This document shows positions 1-32,405 of a stretch of 40,603 bases of DNA, piece by piece. The notes under the pieces were generated by a model that was given only the letters and a program-made list of their open reading frames with translations, did no database searches and was not told the DNA's origin. Origin of the DNA: Deltaproteobacteria bacterium (GTDB taxonomy: Bacteria > Myxococcota_A > UBA796 > UBA2385); contig CANHON010000002.1 of assembly GCA_947462115.1 (NCBI GenBank), positions 1-40,603 of the forward strand. The letters are read 5' to 3'. The position numbers and the translations under genes are program-made. Position 1 is the stretch's first letter. Every line of letters starts with the position of its first letter.

Positions 1-162
1 CATGCGGGCTCCTGCAGAGAGGTCGGCGGGCGCCTCGGCTAACGCGCTCCTGACCGCGAAGATCGGCGCCCCCGATCCGGCCCCGGGCTCGAAGGGCATC
101 CGGGGCTGCCCGTAGGCCCCGGGCCGCGGCCGCCCCACCCCGCCGCGCGCCCCGGAGGCCCC

Positions 163-876
163 ATGTCCCGCCCGCGCTCGGTCGCCCCCTCGCTGGAGCT
201 CATCGCCTTTACCCTCGCCTGCGCTGTTTTGACCGCAGCAGGGTCCGCCGAGGCCGCACCGCCCGCCGCGCTGCTCCGGGCCGGCGTGGACGTGCGCGGC
301 GCCATGCTCAGCGAGGGCGACGACCAGCGGCGCGGGGCCGACCCCACCGAGCTCTGGGCCGCCTTCGGGGCGCCGGTCGGGGGCGCCCTGTTCATCGGCG
401 CGCCGGTGAACGTGCAGGGAGAAGGCCGACATTACCTCGGATTGGACCTGGGCCTGCGGAGCGGCGCCCTGCGCGGCCGGGCCGACAACCTGCCAGGCGG
501 CCCCTTCACCTACCAGCAGCGCACGCTGAGCCCGGCGCTGGGCTTCGTGAACCGCAGCAAAAACAGCGAGCTGTCCGCGCGGATCGGCCCGAGCTGGACC
601 CGCCAGACCACCACTGCCTCCGAGGGCGGGCCGACGGCGACGGGCGACGCCTTCGGCCTCTCTTGGGGGGCCGAGCTCGCGTGGTCAGCGCCCCACAAGG
701 GCCCGCAGCGCGTCAACCTCGGCGTGTTCTTCGAGTCCGACCTCATGGCCGTCGGCGGCAGCAGACAGGGAGACCTGCTGCCCTATGACGACGGCGACGC
801 CGCCTTCTACGCGGCGCTGGGCCTCCGGCTCAGCACCTCACGGGCCCTGCGGCCCCGCGGCGCGCGCGCCGACTGA
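163..876 (+). CDS. secreted hypothetical protein, possible outer-membrane beta-barrel
   Basis: ATG at 163 is preceded by GGAGG (154-158). N-terminal signal peptide LELIAFTLACAVLTAAGSAEA. The remainder is Gly/Ser/aromatic-rich with short alternating strand-like segments. Overlapping ORFs 39..395(-) and 510..746(-) look like antisense artefacts. Confidence 0.6.
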   Translation: MSRPRSVAPSLELIAFTLACAVLTAAGSAEAAPPAALLRAGVDVRGAMLSEGDDQRRGADPTELWAAFGAPVGGALFIGAPVNVQGEGRHYLGLDLGLRSGALRGRADNLPGGPFTYQQRTLSPALGFVNRSKNSELSARIGPSWTRQTTTASEGGPTATGDAFGLSWGAELAWSAPHKGPQRVNLGVFFESDLMAVGGSRQGDLLPYDDGDAAFYAALGLRLSTSRALRPRGARAD

Positions 877-889
877 AGGGGAGGGGCGC

Positions 890-3814
890 TCAAGCCACGG
901 GGATCACCGAGAGCAGGGCGCCCGCGTGCAGGTCGATGACCAGCACCCGGCTGTGGGCGTCGCCGACGAGCAGGCGATCGGGGCGGTCGCCGGGGCGCAC
1001 GAAGCGGGGCGCGCCCGCGATCCGCAGCCAGCCGGTGGGGCGGTGACCGGCGAGGGGCCCGGCGGGGCGCAGCACCAGCGCGGCGAGTCCGTCGTCGTCC
1101 TTCTCGGCGTGGGCGCGCAGGCCGGCGACGAGGCCAAGCTGCTCACGCCAGCGCGCCGGGCCCAAGGGGAAGGGCTCGGGGATCCGCTCGACGCCCTGCA
1201 GGAACAGGCGCTCGCCCGCCTCGCCGAGCTCCCAGAGGGCCTCGCCCTCGACCGACACCACGGGGCCGCGGCCCAGGCGCGGCTCGGGCAGCAGGGGTCG
1301 GCGCTCGCGCAGGGCCGGGCCGGCGCCGCGCTCCCAGCGCCAGAGCTCACGCTCGCCGCTGGCCGTGCGCACGACGGCGCGCAGAACATCGCCCTGCAGG
1401 TCAATCGCGAGGATGGCACCGGCGCCCCTGCCCTCGGGAAGGGACCCGCTGCGCCACAGGCGCCGCAGCCCCTGGGCCTCGGGCTGGTAGCTGCAGAGCT
1501 CGGCGCCCTCGACCACGAAGAGCTGCCCGTCCGGGCTGCTCAGGGCCAGGGGTGCCCGGCGGTCGCCCACCGGCAGGGCGCCGAGCGAGACCGGCGGCGC
1601 GCCCTCGCGGCAGCGCATGACCCGCAGGAGGCCCGGCCCGCCGGCGCTCAGGGCCAGCCAACCCCCGGGCGCCGGCAGCAGGCGCTCGGCGGGGGCCGAG
1701 ATCAAGGCCGGGGGCGCGCCGGGCCGCAGCAGGCGCTGGCCCAAGCCGCCGAGCGCCACCACCAGACCGCCGTGCGGCAGGCTCAAGGCGTCGAGCGGGC
1801 GCACGGCCTCGGGGCCGCCGAGCGGCAGGGGGATGAGGCGCGGGCCCGACCAGTCGAGCGGCCGACCCGGGGCGCTCGGCAGGGGGCCCAAGGCCGGGAG
1901 ATCGGCGTCCAAGGCTCGAAAACTGCGGCTGGGCTCGACGGTGGCCTGGCGGAGGCCGGCGAGCAGGGCCCGGGCGTCGGGCTCGGCCTCGGCGGCCGGG
2001 AGCAGGGCGCGGATCAGCGGCTCGGCCACCGCCGGGCGCAGGGGCGGCAGGCGCAGGGCGGCCTCGGCGAGGCGCAGGCGGTGCAGGGGGCCGCGGTCGA
2101 GGGCGGCGCGCAACGCGGGATCGACGCCGGGCGCGGCGCTCGGGTCGAGGGCCAAGGAGGCCACCACGCACCAAGCGGCCTCGAGATCGGCGTCGGCGCG
2201 GATCGGGGCGAGCAGGCCGCGCAGGGTCTCGGCCACCCGCGGCTCGGCCCGCAGCGGCCAGAGGGTCTGGGTGGCCCCCATCACATCATCGGCTTCGAGC
2301 TGTGCTTCGGCCCAGCGGGCCCGAAGCAGGGCCGCCACCTGCGGGTGCGCGCCCTCCAAGGCCAGGATCGCCGCGCCCAGCGCGCCCCGGCCGAGGCCGA
2401 GCTCCAGGGCCCGCCGCGGCTGGCCCGCCTGCACCCACAGGCGCAGCAGCTCGGGCGTGGGCTGGCCGGTGGCCTCGGCGAAGCGCGCGGCCTCGTCGAG
2501 CAGGCCCTTCTCTTCGAGGTAGACCACCGCCCCGCGCCCGTCGCGCAGCAGCTCGGCGAGCACCCAGGCGGCGCGCGCGTGGTCACCCTCGGCGTCGAGG
2601 CGCCGGTGGGCGTCGAGGTAGAAGCGGCGGAGCATGCCCACCACCTCGGCGCTGACCGCCGCCGCCGCGCCCCGCTGGCCGTGGGTGAGCGTGCCGAGCT
2701 CGCGCTGGCCAAAGCGACCGAAGAACCAGCCTTCGGGCGGGGCGCTGCCGTCACCGCCCAAGGGGATGGCGTGGCGCAGGGCCTCGAGCAGCTCCGAGGT
2801 GCTGAGCGCCCGATCGAAGCGCTCGACCAGGCCCCGCAGGTACTCGGATTGGGCGGACGCCAACCACCGCATCGCCCGCCACAGGGGCAGGCGCGCCGAG
2901 AGGCTGGCCCAGAGGCGCGACCAGGCCGACGGGCCCGCGGGCGGCCGCGGTGGCGGCGCGGGCGGGGCCCCCCTGCTGAGCGCCCCCTTCAAGGCCCGAA
3001 CAGCCCGGCCGACGGTGGACTGGAGCAGCCACCCCACCGCGCCCACCGCCGCGCCGAGGGCCGCGCCGAGGCCAGCCCCGAGCGCCCGCAGCCACCGCGC
3101 GCCCCGGGTCGCGCCCAAGGCCGGCCCCGGGGCGGGCGCCGTCGGCGCGGGCTCGGGCCCGCGGATCGCCTTCAGAATGGCCTGCAGTACGCCACCCCCG
3201 ACCTGGGAGAGCCAGTCGCCGAGGCGGCTGCGGGCCGCCGCCGCGCCCACCGGCGGCGCCGCCGCCTGGGCCACCGCCGCCGCCCCCTCGGCGCTCCACA
3301 GGCCGAGCTCGCGCTGAAGGCCGCCCATCGCCGCCGGGGGCGCCGCTTCGGGCACCGGCGGGGGCGCGCCCAAGGGCCGGGCGCTGCGGCGCGCAAGGGC
3401 CCCGGTGTCGATGAGGGCGCCGGGGGCCAGGGCCGCGGCCGGCCGGGGCAGGCAGCGCCGCGCGCCGCCGAGCGCCAGCTCCAGCTCACCGGGGCCGGGG
3501 CTGCCGGCGGGCCAGAGGGTCGAGGCGCCCACCCCAGCCGGCAGCAGCCGGTCGAGCGCGCCCTGGGGCCCCAAGCGACGGGGCACGGAAAACTCGAGCA
3601 GCAGGCCGATCGGGCCGCCCCCGGGCTCGGTCAAGGCGCAGAGCCGGTCGCCGGGGGCCCAGGCGGCGAGCAGCTGGCCCAGCGCCTGCTGCTCCTCCAA
3701 AATAGCGTCGGGCGAGCCATCTTGAGGGCCACGCCTCTGGATGCCGCCGGCCGGCAGGTAGACGAGGCCCATGCAGCGCAGGCTGCCGCGCGCGCGGAGG
3801 GGCGGGCCGCTCAT
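890..3814 (-). CDS. 974-aa protein, last gene of the MoxR cassette: N-terminal domain, Pro-rich linkers flanking a Gly-zipper hydrophobic helix, alpha-helical middle, beta-propeller-like C-terminus
   Basis: The track ORF 890..4600 has an Arg/Gly/Pro junk N-terminus that overlaps the upstream gene. The in-frame ATG at 3814 (MSGPPLRARGSLRCMGLVYLP...) overlaps the upstream stop as ATGA (3811-3814). The C-terminal third shows repeated strand-turn blades (DGQLFVVEGAELCSY, AILAIDLQGDVLRAVV, SRVLVIDLHAGALL). I recognised no enzymatic motif. Confidence 0.75.
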   Translation of the reverse strand: MSGPPLRARGSLRCMGLVYLPAGGIQRRGPQDGSPDAILEEQQALGQLLAAWAPGDRLCALTEPGGGPIGLLLEFSVPRRLGPQGALDRLLPAGVGASTLWPAGSPGPGELELALGGARRCLPRPAAALAPGALIDTGALARRSARPLGAPPPVPEAAPPAAMGGLQRELGLWSAEGAAAVAQAAAPPVGAAAARSRLGDWLSQVGGGVLQAILKAIRGPEPAPTAPAPGPALGATRGARWLRALGAGLGAALGAAVGAVGWLLQSTVGRAVRALKGALSRGAPPAPPPRPPAGPSAWSRLWASLSARLPLWRAMRWLASAQSEYLRGLVERFDRALSTSELLEALRHAIPLGGDGSAPPEGWFFGRFGQRELGTLTHGQRGAAAAVSAEVVGMLRRFYLDAHRRLDAEGDHARAAWVLAELLRDGRGAVVYLEEKGLLDEAARFAEATGQPTPELLRLWVQAGQPRRALELGLGRGALGAAILALEGAHPQVAALLRARWAEAQLEADDVMGATQTLWPLRAEPRVAETLRGLLAPIRADADLEAAWCVVASLALDPSAAPGVDPALRAALDRGPLHRLRLAEAALRLPPLRPAVAEPLIRALLPAAEAEPDARALLAGLRQATVEPSRSFRALDADLPALGPLPSAPGRPLDWSGPRLIPLPLGGPEAVRPLDALSLPHGGLVVALGGLGQRLLRPGAPPALISAPAERLLPAPGGWLALSAGGPGLLRVMRCREGAPPVSLGALPVGDRRAPLALSSPDGQLFVVEGAELCSYQPEAQGLRRLWRSGSLPEGRGAGAILAIDLQGDVLRAVVRTASGERELWRWERGAGPALRERRPLLPEPRLGRGPVVSVEGEALWELGEAGERLFLQGVERIPEPFPLGPARWREQLGLVAGLRAHAEKDDDGLAALVLRPAGPLAGHRPTGWLRIAGAPRFVRPGDRPDRLLVGDAHSRVLVIDLHAGALLSVIPVA

Positions 3815-5616
3815 TGGGGCCGCGCCGTGGCGATGGCCGAGGCGCTCGGCAGGTGCCAGACCACCAGCACCCCGGCGGCGTCCAGCCAGGCCACCGCGTC
3901 GCCCCGCGGCGAGGCGGCCGCCCAGGCGACGGGGTGGGCCGACACCGGCAAGGTGCGGGGCGCGCCCCAGCCCCGGAGCTCCAAGGCCCCGCCGGTGCTG
4001 ACCAGCAAGCAGGGGGCTTCGTTCTGCGGCACCAGCACGCCAAAGAGCTCGATGTCGGCCGGCACCGCGGGGCCTCCGTGAAACTGCCAGTCGAGGCTGC
4101 CGCCCCGCGACGAGCGCAGCAGGTGGTGGCGCGGCCGCCGGCCAGCGCAGCTCACCCACAAGCGCAGCGCGCGCTCCAGGCCTTGACCGCCGCCGGCCAC
4201 GGTCATCGACCCGATCTCCGGCCCGAGCAGCTCGGCTTGGCGCTCCCGCTGCCGCAGGCTGTAGGCCGCCCGGCCTTCGCCCACCGCCACCGGCAGGCCG
4301 CCGCTGCCCGGGATCAGCGGGGCCAGCTCGCCCGCCTCGTTGATCAGCAGGGCTTTTTGCGCGCCGTCGGGCAGGCGCAGGTGCGCCGGCAGGCCCGCCC
4401 GCACCATCGGGCCCTCGGCGGCGCAGCGCAGGGGGGCGCCCGGCTGGGGCAGCAGCGCCACACCCGCCGCGCCGTCCAGGCCGGTGAGCAGGCCCGGGCG
4501 CGGACCCTGCCCGGCCGCGGCCTCGGGCAGCACGAGCGTGAGGGGCGGCACGGGGCGGGCGGCGCGCACCTCGGCCCAACGCTGACCCACCCCGGCCCAC
4601 AGCTCGCCTTGGGCGTCGAGGCTGAGGGTGGCCAAGCGCTGCCCCACCCAGCCGAGCCCGAGCACCTGGCCGTGGACCTCGCGCAGGTGCGGGCGCCGGC
4701 TGGCCTCGGCGTCGGCCTCGACCGGCAGGGCCACCGCCCGACCGTAGGCGGTCTCGCCGAGCAGGCGCGCGCCCGAGGGCGAGAAGAAGAAGCCCGGCCG
4801 CAGCGACATGCCCCAGGTGCGGGCGGCGATCGCCTTGGGGCTCGCGCTGCGCGGCGGAGACACCGGCCGAAGGGTGGCCGTGCCGCCGAAGCCCGCCGCC
4901 CAGACCATGCCCGGCCGATCGTCGAGACCGATGTGCAGCACGTCGCCTTCGGCCAGAAAGCTCAGGTGCAGCCCGCCCGGCGGCGCGCCCAAGGGCCGAC
5001 CCGGCGGGCCCAGGGTCACGAGGCGCTCCTCGGGCTCGAGCGCGGCCGAGGCCCGCTGCCAGTCGTCCACCTCGGCGGGCTGCGCGCGGCGGGCGGCCCG
5101 TAGGCGATCCAGCCAGCCCTCGCCGAGGCCCTCCATCAGGCCCCCGCCGTCGGCCGACAGCCCACCCCAGCGCAGGGGCAGGCCCTCGGAGGCCGCCCAG
5201 GCCGCCAAGGCCAATAGGGCCGCAGCCTGACCTTGGCGCGGCAGGCCGAGCTGGTTCGGGCCGCCGTCGAGCAGGGCCCGCAGGGCGGTCGGCGGGCGGG
5301 GCGCCTCGGTGTGCAGGGCCAGAAACATCAGCTCGGCGTCGGCCGCCCGCTGCAAAAAGGCCTCAGGGACGACGTCGAGCAGGGCCCACTCGCTGTGCAT
5401 CAGCCGGTCGAAGGGCCCGCGGCGGTCGATGCCAGCCAGGCCATCCGGCGCGCCCGGCCCCCGGCGCGGCGCGGGCCCCTGCAGGCGCAGGCGGGCGAGG
5501 AGGGCCCAGGCCAGCGGGCCGAGCTCCTCTGCCACCGCCTCGGGCTGGGCGGCGAGCAGCGACCGCAGGGCCACCTCGGGCCGGGGCAGCGCCGGCTTCG
5601 GGCGGGTCGGGCTCAT
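3811..5616 (-). CDS. 601-aa protein of the MoxR cassette: N-terminal alpha/beta region (possible degenerate vWA-like, no clear MIDAS) plus C-terminal beta-propeller-like repeats
   Basis: The ATG at 5616 overlaps the upstream stop (ATGA, 5613-5616), and the stop overlaps the next start (3811-3814). The C-terminal half has WD/PQQ-like blade endings (ELWAGVGQRW, AVAWLDAAGVLVVWHL). The N-terminal segment LRALLDGGPNQ...AALLALAAWAASEG resembles a Rossmannoid strand-helix, but DxSxS is absent. Confidence 0.75.
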   Translation of the reverse strand: MSPTRPKPALPRPEVALRSLLAAQPEAVAEELGPLAWALLARLRLQGPAPRRGPGAPDGLAGIDRRGPFDRLMHSEWALLDVVPEAFLQRAADAELMFLALHTEAPRPPTALRALLDGGPNQLGLPRQGQAAALLALAAWAASEGLPLRWGGLSADGGGLMEGLGEGWLDRLRAARRAQPAEVDDWQRASAALEPEERLVTLGPPGRPLGAPPGGLHLSFLAEGDVLHIGLDDRPGMVWAAGFGGTATLRPVSPPRSASPKAIAARTWGMSLRPGFFFSPSGARLLGETAYGRAVALPVEADAEASRRPHLREVHGQVLGLGWVGQRLATLSLDAQGELWAGVGQRWAEVRAARPVPPLTLVLPEAAAGQGPRPGLLTGLDGAAGVALLPQPGAPLRCAAEGPMVRAGLPAHLRLPDGAQKALLINEAGELAPLIPGSGGLPVAVGEGRAAYSLRQRERQAELLGPEIGSMTVAGGGQGLERALRLWVSCAGRRPRHHLLRSSRGGSLDWQFHGGPAVPADIELFGVLVPQNEAPCLLVSTGGALELRGWGAPRTLPVSAHPVAWAAASPRGDAVAWLDAAGVLVVWHLPSASAIATARPQ

Positions 5617-6125
5617 GCCGCGGGCCCCGCGACCGAGGGGACGAGCAAGCCCGGAAAGGCTCCGAGCAGGTCATCTTCGCTGATCAGGTAGGGCGGCCCG
5701 AGGCCCAAGACCAGGCCCGACCCCGGCAGCACCGCCAAGGGCGCCTCGCCGGCCGGCCCCGCGCTGAGCAGGGCCCCCGCCAGCAGCCCCATCGGAACAC
5801 TCGGCGCGCGCGCCGTGGGCACCAGCAGGGCCTCGACCCCCGCCTCGACCCCCAAGAACACGGCCCCGTCGCACCAGGGCGGCGGCCCATCGTCCAAGAC
5901 CCGCAGCACCAGGGCGTCTTCGGCAAGGTCGGCGGCGAAGCGGCGGCCCTCGCGCAGCCCCCGCAGGGCGTCTTCGGCGAGGGCGCGCGCCGCAGGCCCG
6001 ACCGCCGCCACCGCCGAGGCCCGCAGGGGCGGGTGGCGGGCCGACCAAGTGGGCGCCACGGTCGGCAGCGGGGGGCGGCGCGCGCGGCTGGGCGCCGGCG
6101 CCTCGCCAGGCCGGACGATCTTCAC
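5613..6125 (-). CDS. 170-aa hypothetical protein of the MoxR cassette
   Basis: The GTG start at 6125 overlaps the MoxR stop (GTGA, 6122-6125), and the stop overlaps the next ATG. Codon bias is consistent with its neighbours. No motif recognised. The competing ORFs 5671..6213(-) and 5684..5926(-) are low-complexity. Confidence 0.65.
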   Translation of the reverse strand: MKIVRPGEAPAPSRARRPPLPTVAPTWSARHPPLRASAVAAVGPAARALAEDALRGLREGRRFAADLAEDALVLRVLDDGPPPWCDGAVFLGVEAGVEALLVPTARAPSVPMGLLAGALLSAGPAGEAPLAVLPGSGLVLGLGPPYLISEDDLLGAFPGLLVPSVAGPAA

Positions 6126-7246
6126 GGCTGGGTCGCCGGCTGCAAGGCGCCGAGGGCGGCGGCCCGGGCGGCGCGGAGGGCCTCGGGCAGGTCAGCTTCG
6201 GCGAAGGCCACATCGACGTCGCGCAGCCAGCCCCGCAGCCGGGCCCGCCCCGGCTCGCCCCCGAGGGCCCCGGCCAGCAGCGGCGGCAGCTCGGCCACGA
6301 GGCGCCCGGCCTGGGCGGCGGGCCCGTCAGCGGCGGCGGCCACGGCGAAGGGCAGCCGGGGATGGGCGGCCTCGGCCAACAAGCGGGGCAGGGCGGCGCG
6401 GGCCACGGCCTGCTCGGCCTCGGTGGGCACCACCGACAGCAAGGGCCAAAGGTCGGCCTCGGAGGCGGCCCCGCGCCCGGCCAAGGCGGCGGCGGCGGCG
6501 ATGAGGCGCTGGGCCCGCACCATGCGCCGGTCGCTGAGCGCCACCCCGGCGGCCCGCAGCGCGCGCAGGGCCTCGGCCAAGGCCGGCCGGGCGGGCCCGA
6601 GATCGACCTGCTTGGCCATGGCCGAAACAGCGTCGAGATCGCTGATCTCAGCCAGGGCGACCAAGCGCCCCTCGCCCGCGGCCCCGGCCTCGAGCAGCTC
6701 TTCGAGGCGGGCGTCGGGCATGGGGTGCACGAAGGCGCGCAGCAAGAAGCGGTCGGCCAAGGCGGCCAGCGCCGGGTCGTCGGGCAGGTGGTTGCAGGCC
6801 GCCACGCAGGCCCGCAGCGGCACCCGCAGCTCGGTGCGCCCGCGGCGGAACCTCCGGTCGTTCAGCACGCCGAGCAGCGTGTTGAGGATGGCCGTCGAGC
6901 CCAAGAACAGCTCGTCGAGGAAGGCGAACTCGGCCTCGGGCAGCATGCCGGCCGTCTCGACCACCAGCTCGCCCTCGCGCAGCCGCCGCAGGTCGATGGG
7001 GCCGAAAAGCTCGGCGGGCTCGGTGAAGCGGCCGAGCAGGTACTCAAAAGTGCGCGCGCCCAGGGCCTCGCCCACCCGGCGCACGGCGGCGCTTTTGGCG
7101 GTGCCCGGCGGCCCCACCACCAGCAGGTGCTCGCCAGCAACAGCGGCCAGCAGCACCAGCTCGACGAGGGCCTCGCGACCCACCAAGCCCGAGGCCGCGG
7201 CCCGCACGGCGGCGCTGAGGCGCGAGAGCGCCGGGTCGATCGACAT
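6122..7246 (-). CDS. MoxR-family AAA+ ATPase, RavA-like
   Basis: Walker A GPPGTAKS and Walker B FAFLDELF. RavA-like conserved blocks FEYLLGRFTEPAELFGP, AILNTLLGVLNDRRFRRG, VAACNHLP and ALADRFLLR. GGAGG lies 4 nt upstream of the ATG at 7246. Confidence 0.9.
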   Translation of the reverse strand: MSIDPALSRLSAAVRAAASGLVGREALVELVLLAAVAGEHLLVVGPPGTAKSAAVRRVGEALGARTFEYLLGRFTEPAELFGPIDLRRLREGELVVETAGMLPEAEFAFLDELFLGSTAILNTLLGVLNDRRFRRGRTELRVPLRACVAACNHLPDDPALAALADRFLLRAFVHPMPDARLEELLEAGAAGEGRLVALAEISDLDAVSAMAKQVDLGPARPALAEALRALRAAGVALSDRRMVRAQRLIAAAAALAGRGAASEADLWPLLSVVPTEAEQAVARAALPRLLAEAAHPRLPFAVAAAADGPAAQAGRLVAELPPLLAGALGGEPGRARLRGWLRDVDVAFAEADLPEALRAARAAALGALQPATQP

Positions 7247-7499
7247 GGGGGCCTCCAGCCAAGCGGAGCGGCCGCTTATCTGGGCGCCCCGCCGGCTGCG
7301 CCGTCGGCGGCCCTCCGGCCCGGCTCGGCCCTCCGGCCTCGGCCGCGTGCGCGGCGGCCGCTGCGCGGCCCCGGCCGGCCGGCCTGGCGCGCGCGAAGCG
7401 GAGCCCCCCGCTCAAGGAGCTGTCGGATGATCGGCGCCCAGATGGCCGCCCCAAGGCCGGGCTGAGCGGGGCAGCCCGGGAGCGCCTTGACGGGGTCGC

Positions 7500-7660
7500 G
7501 AATCGACGCCGCGGGGGGCGGGCAGCATTATCCTGCGACTTTTCCTGCGAGACCACGACCGAATCTGGGTACTACTTCCACAAGAATGTTGTATTATTTG
7601 ATACTTGCCGCTGGCGATCCAGGGCCTCATTCCGCAATATATCCTGCGCGGATTCCTCCT
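7500..7660. promoter_or_regulatory. AT-rich island in the 469-bp divergent intergenic region (MoxR cassette <-> HipA-like gene); candidate promoter/operator region
   Basis: A sharp local GC drop (ttccacaagaatgttgtattatttgatacttg) includes the -10-like TATTAT (7592-7597). The 9-mer TATCCTGCG occurs at 7529-7537 and 7640-7648, with TTTCCTGCG at 7541-7549. Strand and exact promoter elements cannot be fixed by eye. Confidence 0.35.
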
Positions 7661-7715
7661 CGGTTCCTGGTCCCTGCCTCTACCCGCCCTTCGACCTCCC
7701 CGAGCAGAGCTCGAC

Positions 7716-9041
7716 ATGCCCCCGCCCGACCTCGACCGCCTCGCCCGCCAGCTCCGGCAGGGGCCCCGCCCGGGGCGGGAGCTCCAGGCCCTGCTGGGCA
7801 TCAGCGAGCACGCGCTCGGCCGGCTGCTGCGGGGCCACCCCGAGCGCTTTGTGCGGCTGGGCGCTCGCAAAACATCGACCTATGCGCTGGTTCGGACGAT
7901 CCAAGGGGTCGCGAGCCCCGTGCCGGTCTTCGCTTGGGGGCCGACGGCGGCGGCGCCCGTGGCGCCCCTGCTGCAGCTCGTGCCGATCGAGCCCGGGGGC
8001 TTCGCGGTGCTCCCAGCCGGGGGCGGGCCGGCCACGCGCACCGCCGACCTGCCGTGGTTCCTCCAAGACCTGCGCCCTCAGGGATTTTTGGGGCGAAAGG
8101 TCCCTCGGGTCCTTGGCGGCGATCGCTTCCCCGCAGACATCCGAGCGTGGGGCGCTGACGACGTGCTGCGCTACCTGTGCATCGCTGGCCGGAGCACAGC
8201 TGGGGCCTTGGTCGTCGGTGAGGCCATGTGCATCGCGGCTGCAGCGCATGCTCACCAAGTGCCGCGCGCAACCAGCGAAGGGTCGCTGATCGACATCCTC
8301 GCTGAGCAGGTCGCGGCGGGCGTCGATGATCCGCCGCCGGGGAGCTCCGCGGCTGGGGAGCAGCCCAAGGCCCTGGCGGCGCTCGTTGACGAAAATGGCG
8401 TACACGAGCTGATCGTGAAGTACTCGCCGCCCGTGCTCGACCCCATTGGCCGGCGGGTGGCCGACTTGCTCGTCGCCGAGCACCTCGCCAGCGAGGTCAT
8501 CCACGACCACTGGCCGGGCTGGGCGGCGCGCTCGACGGTGCAGCTCGCGCAGGGGCGGGCCTGGCTGCTGTCGCGCCGCTTCGACCGCAGCCCCGCGGGC
8601 GGGCGCCGCGGCTGCGTGTCCTTGGCCGCGGTCGACGCGGAGCTCTGCGATCACCCGCCGGGCGCGCCGGCGCGCTGGTCGAGCACCGCGCGGGCGCTCG
8701 GCGCGGCGGGGCGGCTCGACGACGCGGCGGTCGCGCGCGTGTGCCGGCTCGAGGCCTTCGGGCACGGCATCGGCAACACCGACATGCACCTCGGCAACCT
8801 CTGCCTGGGCCTCTCTGGCGTTGAGATGGACGGCGTGATGCCCATCTACGACATGCTGCCGATGGCGTGGATGCCCCAGAACGAGCTGCGGCCCATCGGG
8901 CGCCTGCGGCCCGCGCCCGACGACCTCGCGGCCGAGGTGGCGGCGGTGGCGCCGGCGGTGGCCGACTTCTGGGCGCGGCTCGAGGCGGACCCGAGGGCCT
9001 CGCCGGGCTTTCGCGCGGCGCTGGCGGAGCGGGCGCGTTGA
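7716..9041 (+). CDS. HipA-family serine/threonine kinase toxin homologue with fused N-terminal HTH-like domain (YjjJ/HipH-like architecture)
   Basis: HipA motifs are present in order: P-loop-like SSAAGEQPK, catalytic GNTDMHLGN and Mg-binding PIYDMLP. The N-terminal ~60 aa (RELQALLGISEHALGRLLRGHPERFVRLGARKTSTYAL) looks like a winged HTH. I chose the ATG at 7716 rather than the track start at 7605, because the first 37 aa lie in the AT-rich island and look non-coding. Confidence 0.85.
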   Translation: MPPPDLDRLARQLRQGPRPGRELQALLGISEHALGRLLRGHPERFVRLGARKTSTYALVRTIQGVASPVPVFAWGPTAAAPVAPLLQLVPIEPGGFAVLPAGGGPATRTADLPWFLQDLRPQGFLGRKVPRVLGGDRFPADIRAWGADDVLRYLCIAGRSTAGALVVGEAMCIAAAAHAHQVPRATSEGSLIDILAEQVAAGVDDPPPGSSAAGEQPKALAALVDENGVHELIVKYSPPVLDPIGRRVADLLVAEHLASEVIHDHWPGWAARSTVQLAQGRAWLLSRRFDRSPAGGRRGCVSLAAVDAELCDHPPGAPARWSSTARALGAAGRLDDAAVARVCRLEAFGHGIGNTDMHLGNLCLGLSGVEMDGVMPIYDMLPMAWMPQNELRPIGRLRPAPDDLAAEVAAVAPAVADFWARLEADPRASPGFRAALAERAR

Positions 9042-19440: not shown

Positions 19441-20910
<1,470 letters not shown>

Positions 20911-20987
20911 TCGGCGGCGCCCGCCCGCGCCGTGGCCATGCCCCGTCGAGGATGGCCTACCTCACGCCAATGCCGAGGCCGGTGGCT

Positions 20988-22658
20988 TCAGGGGCTCGGC
21001 TCGCCATCGGGGAAGAGCTCCGCGCGCAGGACCGCCGGGCGGTCGCGCATGAAATTGCCCGCGTAGTTGAGCGTGGCCCGCCAATCGGCCGGGCTGGCGG
21101 CGAAGGGCGCCCGGGCGATGAGGTCGCCGATGAGGTCGTTGCACCGCGCCCGCTCGTCGGCGTAGGGGTACTCGGACATGACCTGCGCCATCTCCCACAG
21201 GGCGAGGTCGTAGCGGGCCCGGAGGCTCGGCACGGCCAGCATCCACCGGGCCAAAGCGCCGTTGGGCGCGTAGGAGTCGCCCCACCAGTCGAGGGTCTGG
21301 TCGGTGCCCCAGACCAGCAAGGTGAGCTGGTCGGCGCTGGGGTCGTGGTAGACCCGGTAGTTGTTCGGGTAGTAGAAGTAGCCGTCCCAGTGGCCGATCA
21401 CGACCTCCGACGCCATGGCCTTCATCCAGGCATCGACGTCCACGATGGCCTCCAGCTGCGGCACCAGGGCCTCGCTGGGCGCCTGGTCGAGCAGGGCGGC
21501 GAGCCGGGCGAGCTCCGCGCGGTCGGTGCTGTCGGAGGCCCCCTCCTCGTCCTGGTCGAGCCCGGGGTAGCTGTCGGACGTGAGGTCTTGCCCGTACTCG
21601 CCCTCGTAGAGGTTGCCGCTGGGGTCGTCGAACCAGCGCTGCAAGAACTGGTCGTCCGGCGACTCGATGAGCAGGTAGATGCCCTTGTATTCGCCGTTGA
21701 TGCGGACCTGGGCCCAGGCCGTGCGCGGCGCCGGCACCCCGGCCCTCCGCATCATCCCGTACACGATGGTCTCGTGCAGGTAGCTGGCGTCCTGGACCAT
21801 GTTGTTGAGCGTGATGGTCTCCATGCCGGCGAAGCGCTGCCCCTCCACGTAGCGGTCGATGTTCAGCCGCAAGGCCGGCTTATCGGAGAGCTCGCGGGCG
21901 CTGCCCCACTGGCCCTTGATGCGGACGCTCACGCGGGGGTGGCCGCGGCCGTCGATGTCGAGGCCCGCCGGCACATCGACGGTGGGCTCGGCGGTCAGCC
22001 CCTCGACGCTGGCGGGCGGCAAGCTGACATTGACCTGCAGCACACGATCCTGAGGGAACAGCCAGTCGGTTGGATCGAGGCTGATGCCGGGATCGTGGGG
22101 GTTGGGCGCGCCGGGCGTCGCCTGGATGGTCCCGCTGATGTACGGCCCGCCGTCGGGGAAGCGCCCCCAGGACACGTCGGCGCGCAGGGCATCGGGCTCC
22201 ATGCGATCGGCGAGCACGAGGCCGCCCGCGGTGGGGGCCAGCAGCTGGAGCACCTCGCCGTCGCGGCTCAGGCCCATCGGCAGGGCGCCACCGGCGCCGT
22301 CGGCGTCCAAGTACAGCAGCAGCAGCCCGCCGCCCTCGATCTGAAGGCCGTCAGGCAGGGTGACCTCGCCGCCTCCGTCCCGCAGCACCCAGCCGTCCAA
22401 GGCGACCGGGTCCTCGCCCTGGTTGTAGAGCTCGACCCAGTCCGGGTGGCCGCCGGCCTCGTCGCGCAGGGTGCTCTCGTTCGAGGCCATCAGCTCGTTG
22501 ATCACCACCGGGGGCGCCGCCTCGGGCTCGGGCGCCGCGCTGTCCTGCGCGCCGCTGTCCCCGCCGATGGGCCGCTCGTCTTCGACCTTTAGCGGGCCGT
22601 CTTGGGAGACGGTGGGCGCGCAAGCCGCGAGCAACAGCAGCCAAAATGACGATCGCAT
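20988..22658 (-). CDS. lipoprotein with lamin-tail domain (LTD) plus CotH-family kinase domain
   Basis: Lipobox LLLAAC. LTD signature VVINELMASN...HPDWVELYNQGEDPVALDGWVL. CotH blocks are NNMVQDASYLHETIVYGMMRRAGVPAPR, VRINGEYKGIYLLIESPDDQFLQRWF and GNLYEG. Confidence 0.85.
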   Translation of the reverse strand: MRSSFWLLLLAACAPTVSQDGPLKVEDERPIGGDSGAQDSAAPEPEAAPPVVINELMASNESTLRDEAGGHPDWVELYNQGEDPVALDGWVLRDGGGEVTLPDGLQIEGGGLLLLYLDADGAGGALPMGLSRDGEVLQLLAPTAGGLVLADRMEPDALRADVSWGRFPDGGPYISGTIQATPGAPNPHDPGISLDPTDWLFPQDRVLQVNVSLPPASVEGLTAEPTVDVPAGLDIDGRGHPRVSVRIKGQWGSARELSDKPALRLNIDRYVEGQRFAGMETITLNNMVQDASYLHETIVYGMMRRAGVPAPRTAWAQVRINGEYKGIYLLIESPDDQFLQRWFDDPSGNLYEGEYGQDLTSDSYPGLDQDEEGASDSTDRAELARLAALLDQAPSEALVPQLEAIVDVDAWMKAMASEVVIGHWDGYFYYPNNYRVYHDPSADQLTLLVWGTDQTLDWWGDSYAPNGALARWMLAVPSLRARYDLALWEMAQVMSEYPYADERARCNDLIGDLIARAPFAASPADWRATLNYAGNFMRDRPAVLRAELFPDGEPSP

Positions 22659-30569: not shown

Positions 30570-31154
30570 CTAAGTGCACCACCGGTTGACGCGGGCGGTC
30601 GCCTCGTTCAGGACCTTGAACTCGAACCGACGCTTCGGGAGCGAGACCGCCAAGCGCTGCACCCGAGGGTTCAGCCGATTGTAGAGCTGCTCGCAGGCTT
30701 CGGGATCGCGGAACCCCGAGACCACGAGCACAAGGCAGAGCTCAACGGCGTTCATCGGCGCAGCGTCGACGGTGAGCTTGGCGGGCAGCGGCACCCCCGG
30801 CCACCACCCGTGGGCAGCGCCGAGCCACAGGTGAAGGCTATGGAGGAGCTTGTCGCAGATCTCTTGGTCGAACCTCTCGACCGCCTCTGCTTTTGCGCGG
30901 CGGTCGTCAGGGCTGTCGCCCGGGCGCGGGCCCCACGGCGCCGATGACTTTGCTTCGAGGAACACGATCCGGGGATCCTTTCCCCGGAAGTGCCTGTACA
31001 CGACCGCCTCGACGGCCTTCGGCTGGCTGTTCCCAGCGAGCCCAACGTAGAGCGGGCTCGCCTCTAGCTCCCAGACCCGGTCGGGGTGAAAGGGCCCGAA
31101 CCGAAGACCAGACTCGAGGAGATACACTTGGCCGTCGTTCGGGTCGACTGGCAT
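30570..31154 (-). CDS. 194-aa hypothetical protein coupled to the ATPase; possible PD-(D/E)xK nuclease-like
   Basis: The ATG at 31154 shares one base with the ATPase stop (TGATG, 31152-31156). The segment HPDRVWELE...AVEAVVY...RIVFLEAKSS could be a D/E...ExK motif. No HNH, Toprim or other motif recognised. GC is lower than in the flanks. Confidence 0.6.
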   Translation of the reverse strand: MPVDPNDGQVYLLESGLRFGPFHPDRVWELEASPLYVGLAGNSQPKAVEAVVYRHFRGKDPRIVFLEAKSSAPWGPRPGDSPDDRRAKAEAVERFDQEICDKLLHSLHLWLGAAHGWWPGVPLPAKLTVDAAPMNAVELCLVLVVSGFRDPEACEQLYNRLNPRVQRLAVSLPKRRFEFKVLNEATARVNRWCT

Positions 31155-32179
31155 CACTCCTCCCAGCCGCCAATCTGCCGATTGTACAGGTCGATCGAGG
31201 CTTGAATGATCGGGTTCTCGGGGAGCCCCCCGCGCAGATCGCCCTGTGCGGTGCTGCCATTGTCGCCGAAGCTCAGCCAACCGACCTCGGCGCCCGTACC
31301 CTGCTCGCCAGCGAGCACCGCGAGCGCCTTGAGCACGAAGTAGCTGTGCGTGGCGAGGAAGATCTGCATCCCTGCCCCGGCCAACTTCAACAAGATGTCC
31401 ATCAGAAGCAAGATGGCATCCGGGTGCAGCGCGCTCTCCGGCTCGTCGAAGAGGAGCACGGAGCTGGTGGAGAGGTAGCGGTTACCGAGGAGCTGATCGA
31501 GGATGCCAATCTTCCGCACGCCCTCGGAGGTCACGCCGAGGGGCACCTTGCTGTTTCCCTGCTTGAAGATCCAGGTCGGCGGGGGCCCCGGCACCATCTC
31601 GACCCGCCCGCCGAAGTGCGCCTTGAGGCGGTCGCGCGCACCAGCGAACTCAGTGAAGTTGTTGCCCCGCGTGGTCGGCGCGAGCAGCGCCCGCGCGAGG
31701 TCGACGTAGGTGTCGTCAAAGCCGAAGGCGGCCAGCTCATCGCGCCCGCGCAAGATCGCCGCGTGCATCGACAGCACCTCCTTCGCCGGGAAGAAGAGCG
31801 TGTTGGCCTCGCGGGCGACGAGCCCGCGGCCCTTCACCTCCACCTGCCGGGTGGCGCCCTTCTCGATCTCGATGCGCAAGGGGCCCTCGGTGAGCGCGAG
31901 CTCAAGGCGCGCCTTGTCCGGGCCGCCCCGCCGCACGAGCTTTCCGAAGTCGCCGCACTGGTAGGTCCAGTGCAGCTTCTCGGCGGCCAGCTCCGTGAGC
32001 GTGCGGCGCTCCTCACCGCGCTGCTGCGCCTCGACCACCCGCTGACCGACGTAGAGCGCCTTGAGCAGCACCGTCTTGCCCGCGCCGTTCGTACCCACCA
32101 CCACGTTCAGCCCTGGGCGGGGCTGCCAATCCAGCGTGTGGATGGGCCCGAAGTCGTGAAGCTGTGCACGCGTGATCAT
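31154..32179 (-). CDS. ABC/SMC-type (AAA_21/AAA_15-like) ATPase, 341 aa
   Basis: Walker A GTNGAGKT, signature-like VTSEGVRK, Walker B VLLFDEPESALHP and H-loop FLATHS. I prefer the ATG at 32179 (GGAG 6 nt upstream); the alternative at 32185 gives MPM... The track N-terminal extension is Arg/Gly junk. Confidence 0.8.
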   Translation of the reverse strand: MITRAQLHDFGPIHTLDWQPRPGLNVVVGTNGAGKTVLLKALYVGQRVVEAQQRGEERRTLTELAAEKLHWTYQCGDFGKLVRRGGPDKARLELALTEGPLRIEIEKGATRQVEVKGRGLVAREANTLFFPAKEVLSMHAAILRGRDELAAFGFDDTYVDLARALLAPTTRGNNFTEFAGARDRLKAHFGGRVEMVPGPPPTWIFKQGNSKVPLGVTSEGVRKIGILDQLLGNRYLSTSSVLLFDEPESALHPDAILLLMDILLKLAGAGMQIFLATHSYFVLKALAVLAGEQGTGAEVGWLSFGDNGSTAQGDLRGGLPENPIIQASIDLYNRQIGGWEE

Positions 32180-32405
32180 GGGCATCTCCGGCCGGGCGCC
32201 TATCCGGAGGGCGCCCCGGGCGCCGCAGAACCAAAACGCGGCTTGAGCGCGAGCCGGTCCCACCCGCGCCCCCGCGCCAGGCCGACCGGACGGCGGGCCG
32301 CAGGCCCGGTGGCGCAAGCCACCAAGGCGCGCAGCGCCGCGCCGGGAGGGGGGCCGCCGCCGAAGGCGGGGCGCCCGAGGCTCCCAGCGCGAGAGGCCCC
32401 GCCGC

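Follow-up and report, generated by a model that had tools for sequence, protein, structure and literature searches.

A cassette of four genes on the minus strand of contig CANHON010000002.1 (Deltaproteobacteria bacterium, assembly GCA_947462115.1; positions 1 to 40,603, the whole stretch of 40,603 nucleotides analysed here and called the window) is almost certainly a member of the bpX5/bpX6 subtype of the beta-propeller MoxR-vWA (von Willebrand factor A) ternary systems. This assignment is based on the bpMoxR ATPase encoded by gene 1 and its P-loop GPPGTAKS, the bpX5 protein encoded by gene 2, the WD40 match of the gene 3 family, and the bpX6 family and TPR (tetratricopeptide repeat)-like solenoid of gene 4. 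An earlier reading of the DNA made from its letters alone (the sequence-only reading) had placed the cassette among the MoxR-vWA ternary systems, in the beta-propeller version marked by bpX domains, and the profile searches bear this out: bpMoxR was matched by gene 1 with an expect value (E) of 2.3e-81 and bpX5 by gene 2 with E 7e-11, while bpX6 was found in 34 of 39 gene 4 homologues. When the four products were compared with Pfam, as that reading had proposed, gene 1 matched bpMoxR, AAA_5 and AAA_lid_8, gene 2 matched bpX5, and genes 3 and 4 gave no match. The class, its Pfam models and this gene order have already been described, and the window copy is an additional, diverged example rather than a new kind of system.

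The beta-propeller MoxR-vWA ternary systems were defined as subsystem 4 by Kaur, Burroughs, Iyer and Aravind (2020, eLife 9:e52696; PMC7159879, section 22). According to these authors, the vWA domain is divergent, may miss one or both aspartates of the metal ion-dependent adhesion site (MIDAS) and has a propeller behind it, and the third component combines a variable N-terminal domain, a membrane segment, TPR and a propeller; additional linked proteins with unknown fold occur, the MoxR protein often shows the motif GxxxTAKS, and a conventional effector is absent (PMC7159879). The window cassette resembles subsystem 4 in its bpMoxR with GxxxTAKS, its bpX5 accessory protein, a vWA-like domain without MIDAS joined to a propeller, the absence of a conventional effector, and a third protein in which a variable N-terminal domain, an optional membrane segment, TPR and a propeller appear to be combined. 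It differs from subsystem 4 as described in that it belongs to a diverged clade of Myxococcota type whose gene 4 N-terminal domain escapes the bpX6 model, its gene 3 propeller seems to be about seven blades in size, compared with 'about four' for subsystem 4, and it lacks the long N-terminal helical bpX0 domain and the bpX1 tail.

Results

The ATPase and the bpX5 protein

The match of gene 1 to PF20030 (bpMoxR, 'MoxR domain in the MoxR-vWA-beta-propeller ternary systems') reached 272 bits against a cut-off of 27 bits, and was accompanied by matches to AAA_5 (3.4e-23) and AAA_lid_8 (2.3e-05). Residues G45, G48, T49, K51, S52, D111, E112, N152, D165, R166, R240 and R241, which cover Walker A and B, sensor 1, the arginine finger and sensor 2, were invariant across 49 homologues and, since the catalytic residues are so strictly kept, gene 1 apparently encodes an active MoxR-clade AAA+ ATPase. 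Position 50 of the P-loop is alanine in 43 of these 49 proteins, with gene 1 showing the GxxxTAKS variant, and glycine in six. The designation 'RavA-like' given by the sequence-only reading holds at the superfamily level only, since gene 1 scored 157.6 bits against the RavA model (NCBIfam NF010054), whose cut-off is 681 bits; the alignment covers only residues 8-269, which correspond to positions 12-280 of the model's 498, gene 1 is 124 residues shorter than the model and lacks the C-terminal LARA-type part, and orthology with RavA was rejected on the score.

The bpX5 match of gene 2 (PF19921) spans residues 26-142. Over 50 loci have a homologue of gene 2 in the corresponding place, and comparison of the family profile with the PDB yielded no solved relative of bpX5.

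The vWA-like and propeller protein

Gene 3 gave no match in Pfam, VWA included. When 1.84 billion representative proteins were searched with a profile, 1,094 relatives were retrieved at E <= 1e-3, with few exceptions 540-640 amino acids (aa) long, and the family amounts to about 1,100 clusters at 50% identity. The invariant residues of the family sit in the N-terminal 250 residues, where an arginine-rich pre-vWA motif (PDG..G..RRG..RL..SEW...P.EFLRRA...E) is followed by a hydrophobic strand. At the place of DxSxS the family shows the signature hhhhD117-x-G-P-x-Q-L-G-x-P-R127, in which D117, G124 and R127 never vary among 72 family members and G119 and P120 hardly do; only the first MIDAS aspartate is kept, both serines and the strand-4 aspartate being absent. 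The profile of this domain weakly matched that of five canonical VWA_2/CoxE proteins linked to MoxR in other loci (hhalign P 0.0032), with D117 falling on the first aspartate of DTSGSMQGAPE and with helix 1 and strand 2 in register. The description of this region as a degenerate Rossmannoid or vWA-like segment without DxSxS, given by the sequence-only reading, was accurate in that DxGPxQLGxPR replaces DxSxS and the strand-4 aspartate is missing.

The C-terminal part of gene 3 is predicted to fold as a WD40-like beta-propeller of about seven blades in size, the number of blades being putative. Compared with the PDB, the family profile of 72 sequences matched 2ymu (5.5e-23), the designed WRAP-T propellers (4e-14 to 3e-11) and PkwA (6.7e-10), and entire 7-blade propellers align to profile positions ~267-580, a match that comes from the family alignment anchored on window gene 3 and not from the window sequence by itself. 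Self-comparison of the blade repeats gave weak values (P 0.002-0.02), and an AlphaFold2 model of gene 3 built from three sequences was discarded because of its predicted local distance difference test score (pLDDT) of 32.

Some relatives of gene 3 show other domain arrangements. Two family members of about 910 aa (P0065 and P0121) carry an N-terminal Ser/Thr protein kinase ahead of the vWA-like domain. A sister subtype was found in Singulisphaera sp. PoT (L073:9995-17447), with a bpMoxR, a bpX2 protein, a 945-aa protein weakly matched by bpX0, ivWA and bpX1, below threshold for bpX0 and bpX1, and a 918-aa protein with bpX3 and a weak, sub-threshold TPR_WDR35 match. The profile of the gene 3 N-terminal domain matched this 945-aa protein with E 2e-22 in a local test against the one sequence, and the complete gene 3 profile did so with 2e-15 in a scan of all open reading frames (ORFs) of the loci; the pre-vWA motif of the L073 homologue weakly overlaps the start of the ivWA model (E 0.0035).

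The gene 4 product

No direct Pfam match was obtained for window gene 4, although PF19922 (bpX6) covers residues ~1-170 of those homologues from related loci in which it was detected. A profile built from 40+ bpX6 regions misses the N-terminal domain of the window protein, and an iterative search started from residues 1-200 of that protein reaches the Pfam-verified bpX6 members L016, L044, L046 and P0007 with no decoys; via this iterative search only, the domain is predicted to be a highly diverged bpX6-type. The low-complexity linker that follows includes a hydrophobic stretch at residues 245-263 with a Kyte-Doolittle 19-residue mean of 1.64, compared with a threshold of 1.6. At the same place about half of the gene 4 homologues have one to four clear hydrophobic segments, with means up to 2.9, and the others have none.

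The motif EALRHAIPLGG, the most conserved of the gene 4 family, lies in a helical-hairpin solenoid that contains most of the invariant columns. The AlphaFold2 model of gene 4, built from six sequences, has an overall pLDDT of 53 and is usable only at residues ~320-640, where about 20 short helices were predicted with pLDDT mostly 70-92 (lower at ~350-390); the linker ahead of them was poorly modelled. The best Foldseek matches of this solenoid included CTPR, OGT-TPR, LapB and gamma-SNAP, at probabilities of 0.91-0.97 and E values between 6e-3 and 1.5e-2, and the Foldseek matches of the gene 4 model were TPR proteins and beta-propellers only, all with E 4e-3 or weaker. The alignments behind the structure predictions were shallow because word-indexed homologue searches were swamped by low-complexity, high-GC (guanine plus cytosine) candidates, yielding 2, 5 and 1 matches, and remained sparse even with a concatenated gene 3 and gene 4 alignment of eight diverse loci.

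The C-terminal region of gene 4 was modelled as all-beta with pLDDT 22-66. Against the PDB the family profile gave weak WD-repeat matches (E 0.018-0.085) besides TPR matches up to E 0.09; Foldseek paired the region with BamB, Lis1, Tako8 and IFT-A at E 4e-3 to 2e-2, and in hhalign the final blades of genes 3 and 4 were similar (P 0.0011). The sequence-only reading had seen beta-propeller-like ends in both large proteins; the gene 3 family agrees with this through its WD40 matches, and gene 4 is beta-rich, with weaker similarity.

Variants of gene 4 were also met. In two Myxococcales (L014:13372-16926 and L033:13350-17033) the homologue has a PP2C/SpoIIE phosphatase domain at residues ~620-850, behind the helices and ahead of the beta-rich C-terminal part. 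P0007 (L003:601-3495), a homologue with bpX6, TPR-like and beta-rich parts, has an opposite-strand gene about 150 bp upstream and may for this reason stand without MoxR, bpX5 and vWA genes, on a contig of just 6.6 kb.

Operon organization

The four genes form one translationally coupled operon. The coding-strand letters at the three junctions (CCGTGAAG, GCATGAGC and CAATGAGC) contain the start/stop overlaps GTGA, ATGA and ATGA, the first of them formed by the GTG start of gene 2 and the stop of gene 1; the sequence-only reading had located all three correctly, and the peptide blocks that it quoted (FEYLLGRFTEPAELFGP, AILNTLLGVLNDRRFRRG, ACNHLP, AAGVLVVWHL and SRVLVIDLHAGALL) were likewise all present. 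Across 51 clean related loci from many phyla, 4-nucleotide (nt) overlaps were found at 119 of 153 junctions (78%; 63 GTGA, 51 ATGA and 5 TTGA), a count that is an upper estimate because the rule used to pick starts prefers the nearest one, and the upstream stop is TGA at 151 of the 153. The overlaps are not chance, which by our rough, uncomputed estimate would account for <=0.2 per junction, so that translational coupling counts among the conserved features of the module. Exceptions occur, such as a gap of ~1.07 kb between genes 3 and 4 in an abditibacteriotal locus (L044:13623-14690) and gaps of 260-300 nt between genes 2 and 3 in Nannocystis and Kitasatospora (L016, L046).

The promoter of the operon is presumed, from the ORF layout, to lie in the divergent intergenic region upstream of gene 1. 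A sigma-70 consensus scan of this region gave no match and is uninformative at 75-80% GC, as were the promoter and terminator scans of the window given its GC content; Rfam families and tRNAs were absent from the window. The GC content of the cassette region (window 1-7000) is 0.78-0.81, compared with mostly 0.69-0.77 in the remaining window, which may reflect proteins rich in Ala, Gly, Pro and Arg or a different origin.

Distribution and divergence of the cassette

Relatives' loci were collected by a pattern scan with the MoxR alignment, one genome per species, which returned 80 loci. The order of the four genes is kept in more than 50 of them, distributed over at least eight phyla (Myxococcota, Actinomycetota, Pseudomonadota, Abditibacteriota, Vulcanimicrobiota, Acidobacteriota, Armatimonadota and Planctomycetota), with carriers in the actinomycetotal genera Lentzea, Micromonospora, Kribbella, Kitasatospora and Streptomyces, among others, and in the pseudomonadotal genera Rhizobacter and Stenotrophomonas. 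The four genes travel jointly as a self-contained module over many phyla, and the flanking genes are kept within a genus only, not beyond. The Myxococcota copies are split over at least five lineages of the MoxR tree, among which other phyla are interspersed, and the window copy groups with Myxococcota and 'Deltaproteobacteria' metagenome-assembled genomes. Within genera MoxR is the most conserved component, and the gene 3 propeller and the N-terminal domain and linker of gene 4 diverge fastest.

A cassette of the same composition is on record in Pseudomonas syringae, where the region of genomic plasticity RGP_32 of clade 2b-a lists a ravA-like ATPase and bpX5, WD-like and bpX6 proteins, annotated only, as clade-specific accessory genes (PMC9677677). 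Compared by annotation only, its gene order and domain names are identical to those of the window cassette, the phylum being different.

Further genes adjoin the cassette in some lineages. In Lentzea and related loci (L015, L023, L025, L027, L043) two conserved ORFs precede bpMoxR directly on the same strand, one of ~210 aa at 10 nt and one of ~600 aa at 636 nt, and in two soil metagenome loci (L085:2912-3943, L086:2-688) a TPR protein lies directly upstream. These may be extra linked components in the lineages concerned.

Neighbourhood of the cassette in the window

The sequence-only reading had considered a HipA-type toxin kinase and an AT-rich island next to the cassette to be consistent with a conflict or defence island. 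Both neighbours exist, in a different relation to the cassette: the HipA_C-only kinase-like protein is encoded on the opposite strand and divergently, and the sole lower-GC stretch of the window, at 30-34 kb (GC 0.67-0.70) and probably the AT-rich island that was meant, lies ~23 kb away. The island argument fails at this locus because the HipA neighbour is unique to it, the low-GC stretch is distant and the genes between look ordinary. No HipA_C homologue was found adjoining any other cassette, and HipA was rejected as a component of the system on that ground; the N-terminal region of the window protein looks helix-turn-helix-like when judged by eye. No defence or mobility gene stands immediately beside the cassette, whose neighbours are the HipA_C kinase, an NmrA-like reductase, a LysR regulator and a Na/Ca exchanger; further on, the window encodes a transporter, peptidases, a pirin, an acyl-CoA dehydrogenase and phospholipases.

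PADLOC, also proposed by the sequence-only reading and run on products of the window only, left the cassette unmatched and instead pointed to a HEC-02 candidate defence pair in the lower-GC stretch, formed by a 387-aa AAA_21/AAA_15 ATPase (HEC-02A, 4.4e-109) and a 236-aa ORF (HEC-02B, 3.4e-22). Elsewhere in the window, at 19441-22658, a protein with seven MopE metal-binding motifs and a C-type lectin domain adjoins one with CotH-kinase and lamin-tail domains, and from their sequences both look like secreted proteins.

Table 1. Coordinates of the cassette, its predicted domains and motifs, and other features of the window
Feature	Position	Strand	Remarks
Gene 1	6122-7246	minus	374 aa, ATG start
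Gene 1 Walker A GPPGTAKS, residues 45-52	7091-7114	minus	sequence motif
Gene 1 Walker B D111-E112	6911-6919	minus	sequence motif
Gene 2	5613-6125	minus	170 aa, GTG start
Gene 3	3811-5616	minus	601 aa, ATG start
Gene 3 N-terminal domain, residues 1-250	4867-5616	minus	degenerate vWA-like Rossmannoid (predicted), pre-vWA motif conserved
Gene 3 signature hhhhD117-x-G-P-x-Q-L-G-x-P-R127	5236-5268	minus	stands in place of DxSxS
Gene 3 C-terminal part, residues ~265-601	3814-4824	minus	WD40-like beta-propeller (predicted)
Gene 4	890-3814	minus	974 aa, ATG start
Gene 4 N-terminal globular domain, residues 1 to ~160	3335-3814	minus	highly diverged bpX6-type (predicted)
Gene 4 Gly/Ala-rich hydrophobic segment, residues 245-263	3026-3082	minus	in low-complexity linker
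Gene 4 TPR-like helical-hairpin solenoid, residues ~320-640	1895-2857	minus	includes EALRHAIPLGG
Gene 4 beta-rich C-terminal region, residues ~650-974	893-1867	minus	probable beta-propeller
Divergent intergenic region, gene 1 to HipA_C gene	7247-7604	.	358 bp, from ORF layout; presumed promoter region
HipA_C-only kinase-like protein	7605-9041	plus	E 5.3e-12; divergent from gene 1, 358-bp spacer
HEC-02 candidate defence pair	30570-32317	minus	PADLOC; inside lower-GC stretch

Discussion

The explanation that we favour overall, with a confidence a little better than even, is that the cassette encodes an ATP-gated sensor/effector complex, as could be reasoned from Kaur et al. and by analogy to MoxR-vWA pairs of characterised function. 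The propeller and TPR parts of the two repeat-rich proteins would make up a scaffold to which a protein or peptide ligand binds, and the vWA-like domain of gene 3 would dock the bpMoxR hexamer; since this domain lacks the metal-binding MIDAS site, it is probably a structural adaptor, and bpX5 may be an accessory. ATP hydrolysis would remodel the complex only when the ligand exceeds a threshold, and this remodelling could free or activate the fast-evolving N-terminal domain of gene 4, next to the membrane if the homologue in question has membrane segments. As output, growth would be arrested or a signal restricting an invader would be given. This particular order of events is a speculative proposal, rather less likely to be right than wrong in its details. 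A role in biological conflict or threat sensing falls only a little short of an even chance. Traits of the cassette that resemble those of conflict systems are the fast divergence of the gene 3 propeller and of the gene 4 N-terminal domain and linker, and the variants with PP2C and Ser/Thr kinase domains; from the literature, the plasticity-region cassette of P. syringae (PMC9677677) and the sensing of epibionts by the Esr pathway (bioRxiv 10.64898/2026.09.08.750141) can be added.

Several observations weigh against this explanation or against parts of it. The systems are described as enigmatic even by Kaur et al., who defined them, and the association P of the beta-propeller subsystem (0.0094) is the weakest of the four MoxR-vWA ternary subsystems (PMC7159879). 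Searches of the full-text literature retrieved no experimental study of the beta-propeller class. PADLOC-DB 2.0 gave only noise for gene 1 (E 0.047) and nothing for genes 2-4, and neither Pfam nor NCBIfam revealed an effector or catalytic domain outside the ATPase in the four proteins. The sampled neighbourhoods of related loci consist mostly of ordinary genes; the cassette was absent from a phage collection and from E. coli genomes, and its single match in a plasmid collection is a chromosome-sized replicon of 5.7 Mb. With its conserved synteny in Lentzea, its presence in several Micromonospora and Kitasatospora genomes and the grouping of the actinobacterial copies as one clade of the MoxR tree, the cassette looks more stably inherited than typical defence genes. 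At the level of domains, the vWA assignment of the gene 3 N-terminal domain is a weak one drawn from a similarity of P 0.003: a PDB profile search with this domain found no sequence match, and a Pfam scan of 46 such domains found ivWA in two of 46, at E >= 0.03, and no VWA. Residues 245-263 of gene 4 are a possible membrane segment and a marginal one, and the propeller at the C-terminus of gene 4, though probable, is also marginal, the indications for it being weak but consistent.

An alternative, to which we give a minor share of belief, is a signalling module that senses threat or stress and does not kill by itself: the propeller and TPR proteins would perceive a ligand, the MoxR-vWA pair would turn this into a conformational signal, and the output would pass through partners encoded elsewhere, for instance by Ser/Thr phosphorylation. 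The lack of a recognised effector domain in the cassette would fit such a module, as would the PP2C domain inside gene 4 in L014 and L033, the Ser/Thr kinase fused to the gene 3 family in P0065 and P0121, and the occurrence of Pkinase and FHA genes a few kb away in the two closest loci (L001, L002). Kinases are however very abundant in Myxococcota, so that this proximity may be due to chance, and no kinase, phosphatase or FHA gene is found in or beside the window cassette. A precedent is given by the Esr pathway of the oral actinobacterium Schaalia odontolytica, the sole experimentally studied relative that we found in the literature, in which a propeller sensor acts with MoxR and vWA proteins in epibiont sensing, as shown experimentally, and a kinase/phosphatase pair signals to an FHA protein leading to Esx secretion (bioRxiv 10.64898/2026.09.08.750141). 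Its authors tie Esr to the systems of Kaur et al. (bioRxiv 10.64898/2026.09.08.750141), and, compared by description only, both have a MoxR and vWA pair and a sequence-diverse WD40-type propeller sensor. Yet the Esr sensor EsrA is a secreted surface protein, a filament with Ig-like repeats, whereas the window proteins lack a clear signal peptide or membrane segment, one marginal stretch excepted; nor are the kinase/phosphatase pair, the FHA protein and the Esx output encoded in the window cassette.

To a similarly small extent we consider that the cassette could be a housekeeping MoxR chaperone comparable to RavA-ViaA, CbbQ-CbbO, NorQ-NorD or CoxD-CoxE, in which the ATPase and its vWA-like adaptor would mature or assemble a cellular client, the propeller and TPR proteins would serve as scaffolds, and conflict would play no part. 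MoxR-vWA pairs that have been characterised act in this way (summarised in PMC7159879), and the reading agrees with the ordinary neighbours in the window, L085 and L086, with the stable inheritance in Lentzea and the single actinobacterial MoxR clade, and with the absence of PADLOC matches. Like those systems, the cassette has a MoxR ATPase with an AAA_5 core and lid encoded directly upstream of its partner, and gene 3 shares with the RavA-ViaA-type partner a similar arginine-rich opening followed by a Rossmannoid strand-Asp-loop-helix. Unlike in RavA-ViaA, the partner has neither DxSxS nor a Pfam VWA match, two more proteins are obligatory and no client gene is nearby. Indeed, a conserved client gene beside the cassette is absent in more than 50 loci, whose flanks differ outside the genus, and the MIDAS site that binds the client in the characterised systems is degenerate here. 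The sparse and patchy distribution over phyla, in which the Myxococcota copies alone make up five or more separate lineages, the location of the P. syringae cassette in a plasticity region specific to a strain clade (PMC9677677) and the fast evolution of the putative sensor and effector parts also count against housekeeping. As regards the related FtsH-containing MoxR-vWA ternary systems (subsystem 3; ivWA, PF19997), they share with the window cassette a divergent vWA or vWA-like domain lacking MIDAS aspartates, GxxxTAKS and propellers fused to the vWA protein, and differ from it in that the cassette contains no FtsH, ubiquitin-like conjugation genes, radical-SAM or NEFF1 effector.

That the four ORFs or their overlaps are mere artefacts of high GC content, long chance ORFs and no real operon, can be dismissed with near certainty: the window does have 70-81% GC and long shadow ORFs on both strands, but the example at 785-4081 on the plus strand has an antisense codon-GC pattern, GC at codon position 3 is 0.89-0.94 in the four minus-strand frames, homologues of all four genes occur in the same order in dozens of genomes of very different GC, and two of the products match curated Pfam models.

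Returning to the ATP-gated sensor/effector complex, a bolder version of it, which we regard as improbable though worth stating, is that bpX5/bpX6 cassettes are effector-less, ATP-gated cytoplasmic receptors in which the fast-evolving propellers read invader proteins and the MoxR-vWA pair switches the N-terminal domain of gene 4. As part of the same improbable proposal, the switched domain would adopt a signalling or membrane-perturbing state, and some lineages would have wired it to Ser/Thr phosphorylation by means of the fused kinase or PP2C. If true, the cassettes would parallel, in bacteria, repeat-based innate immune receptors and differ in mechanism from known defence systems, and the unrecognisable N-terminal domain of the window clade would be a new output module.

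Whatever its role, the class is widespread, with ~1,100 clusters of vWA-propeller proteins and carriers of the cassette in eight or more phyla. For experiments, the culturable carriers met in this survey (among them Stenotrophomonas maltophilia, Nannocystis, Micromonospora, Streptomyces and Lentzea) and P. syringae, known as a carrier from the literature (PMC9677677), are better suited than the organism of the window. Working out how a MoxR ATPase operates with a vWA-like domain devoid of its metal site and two repeat proteins would widen the known roles of MoxR chaperones, and the class could reveal a new sensing logic.

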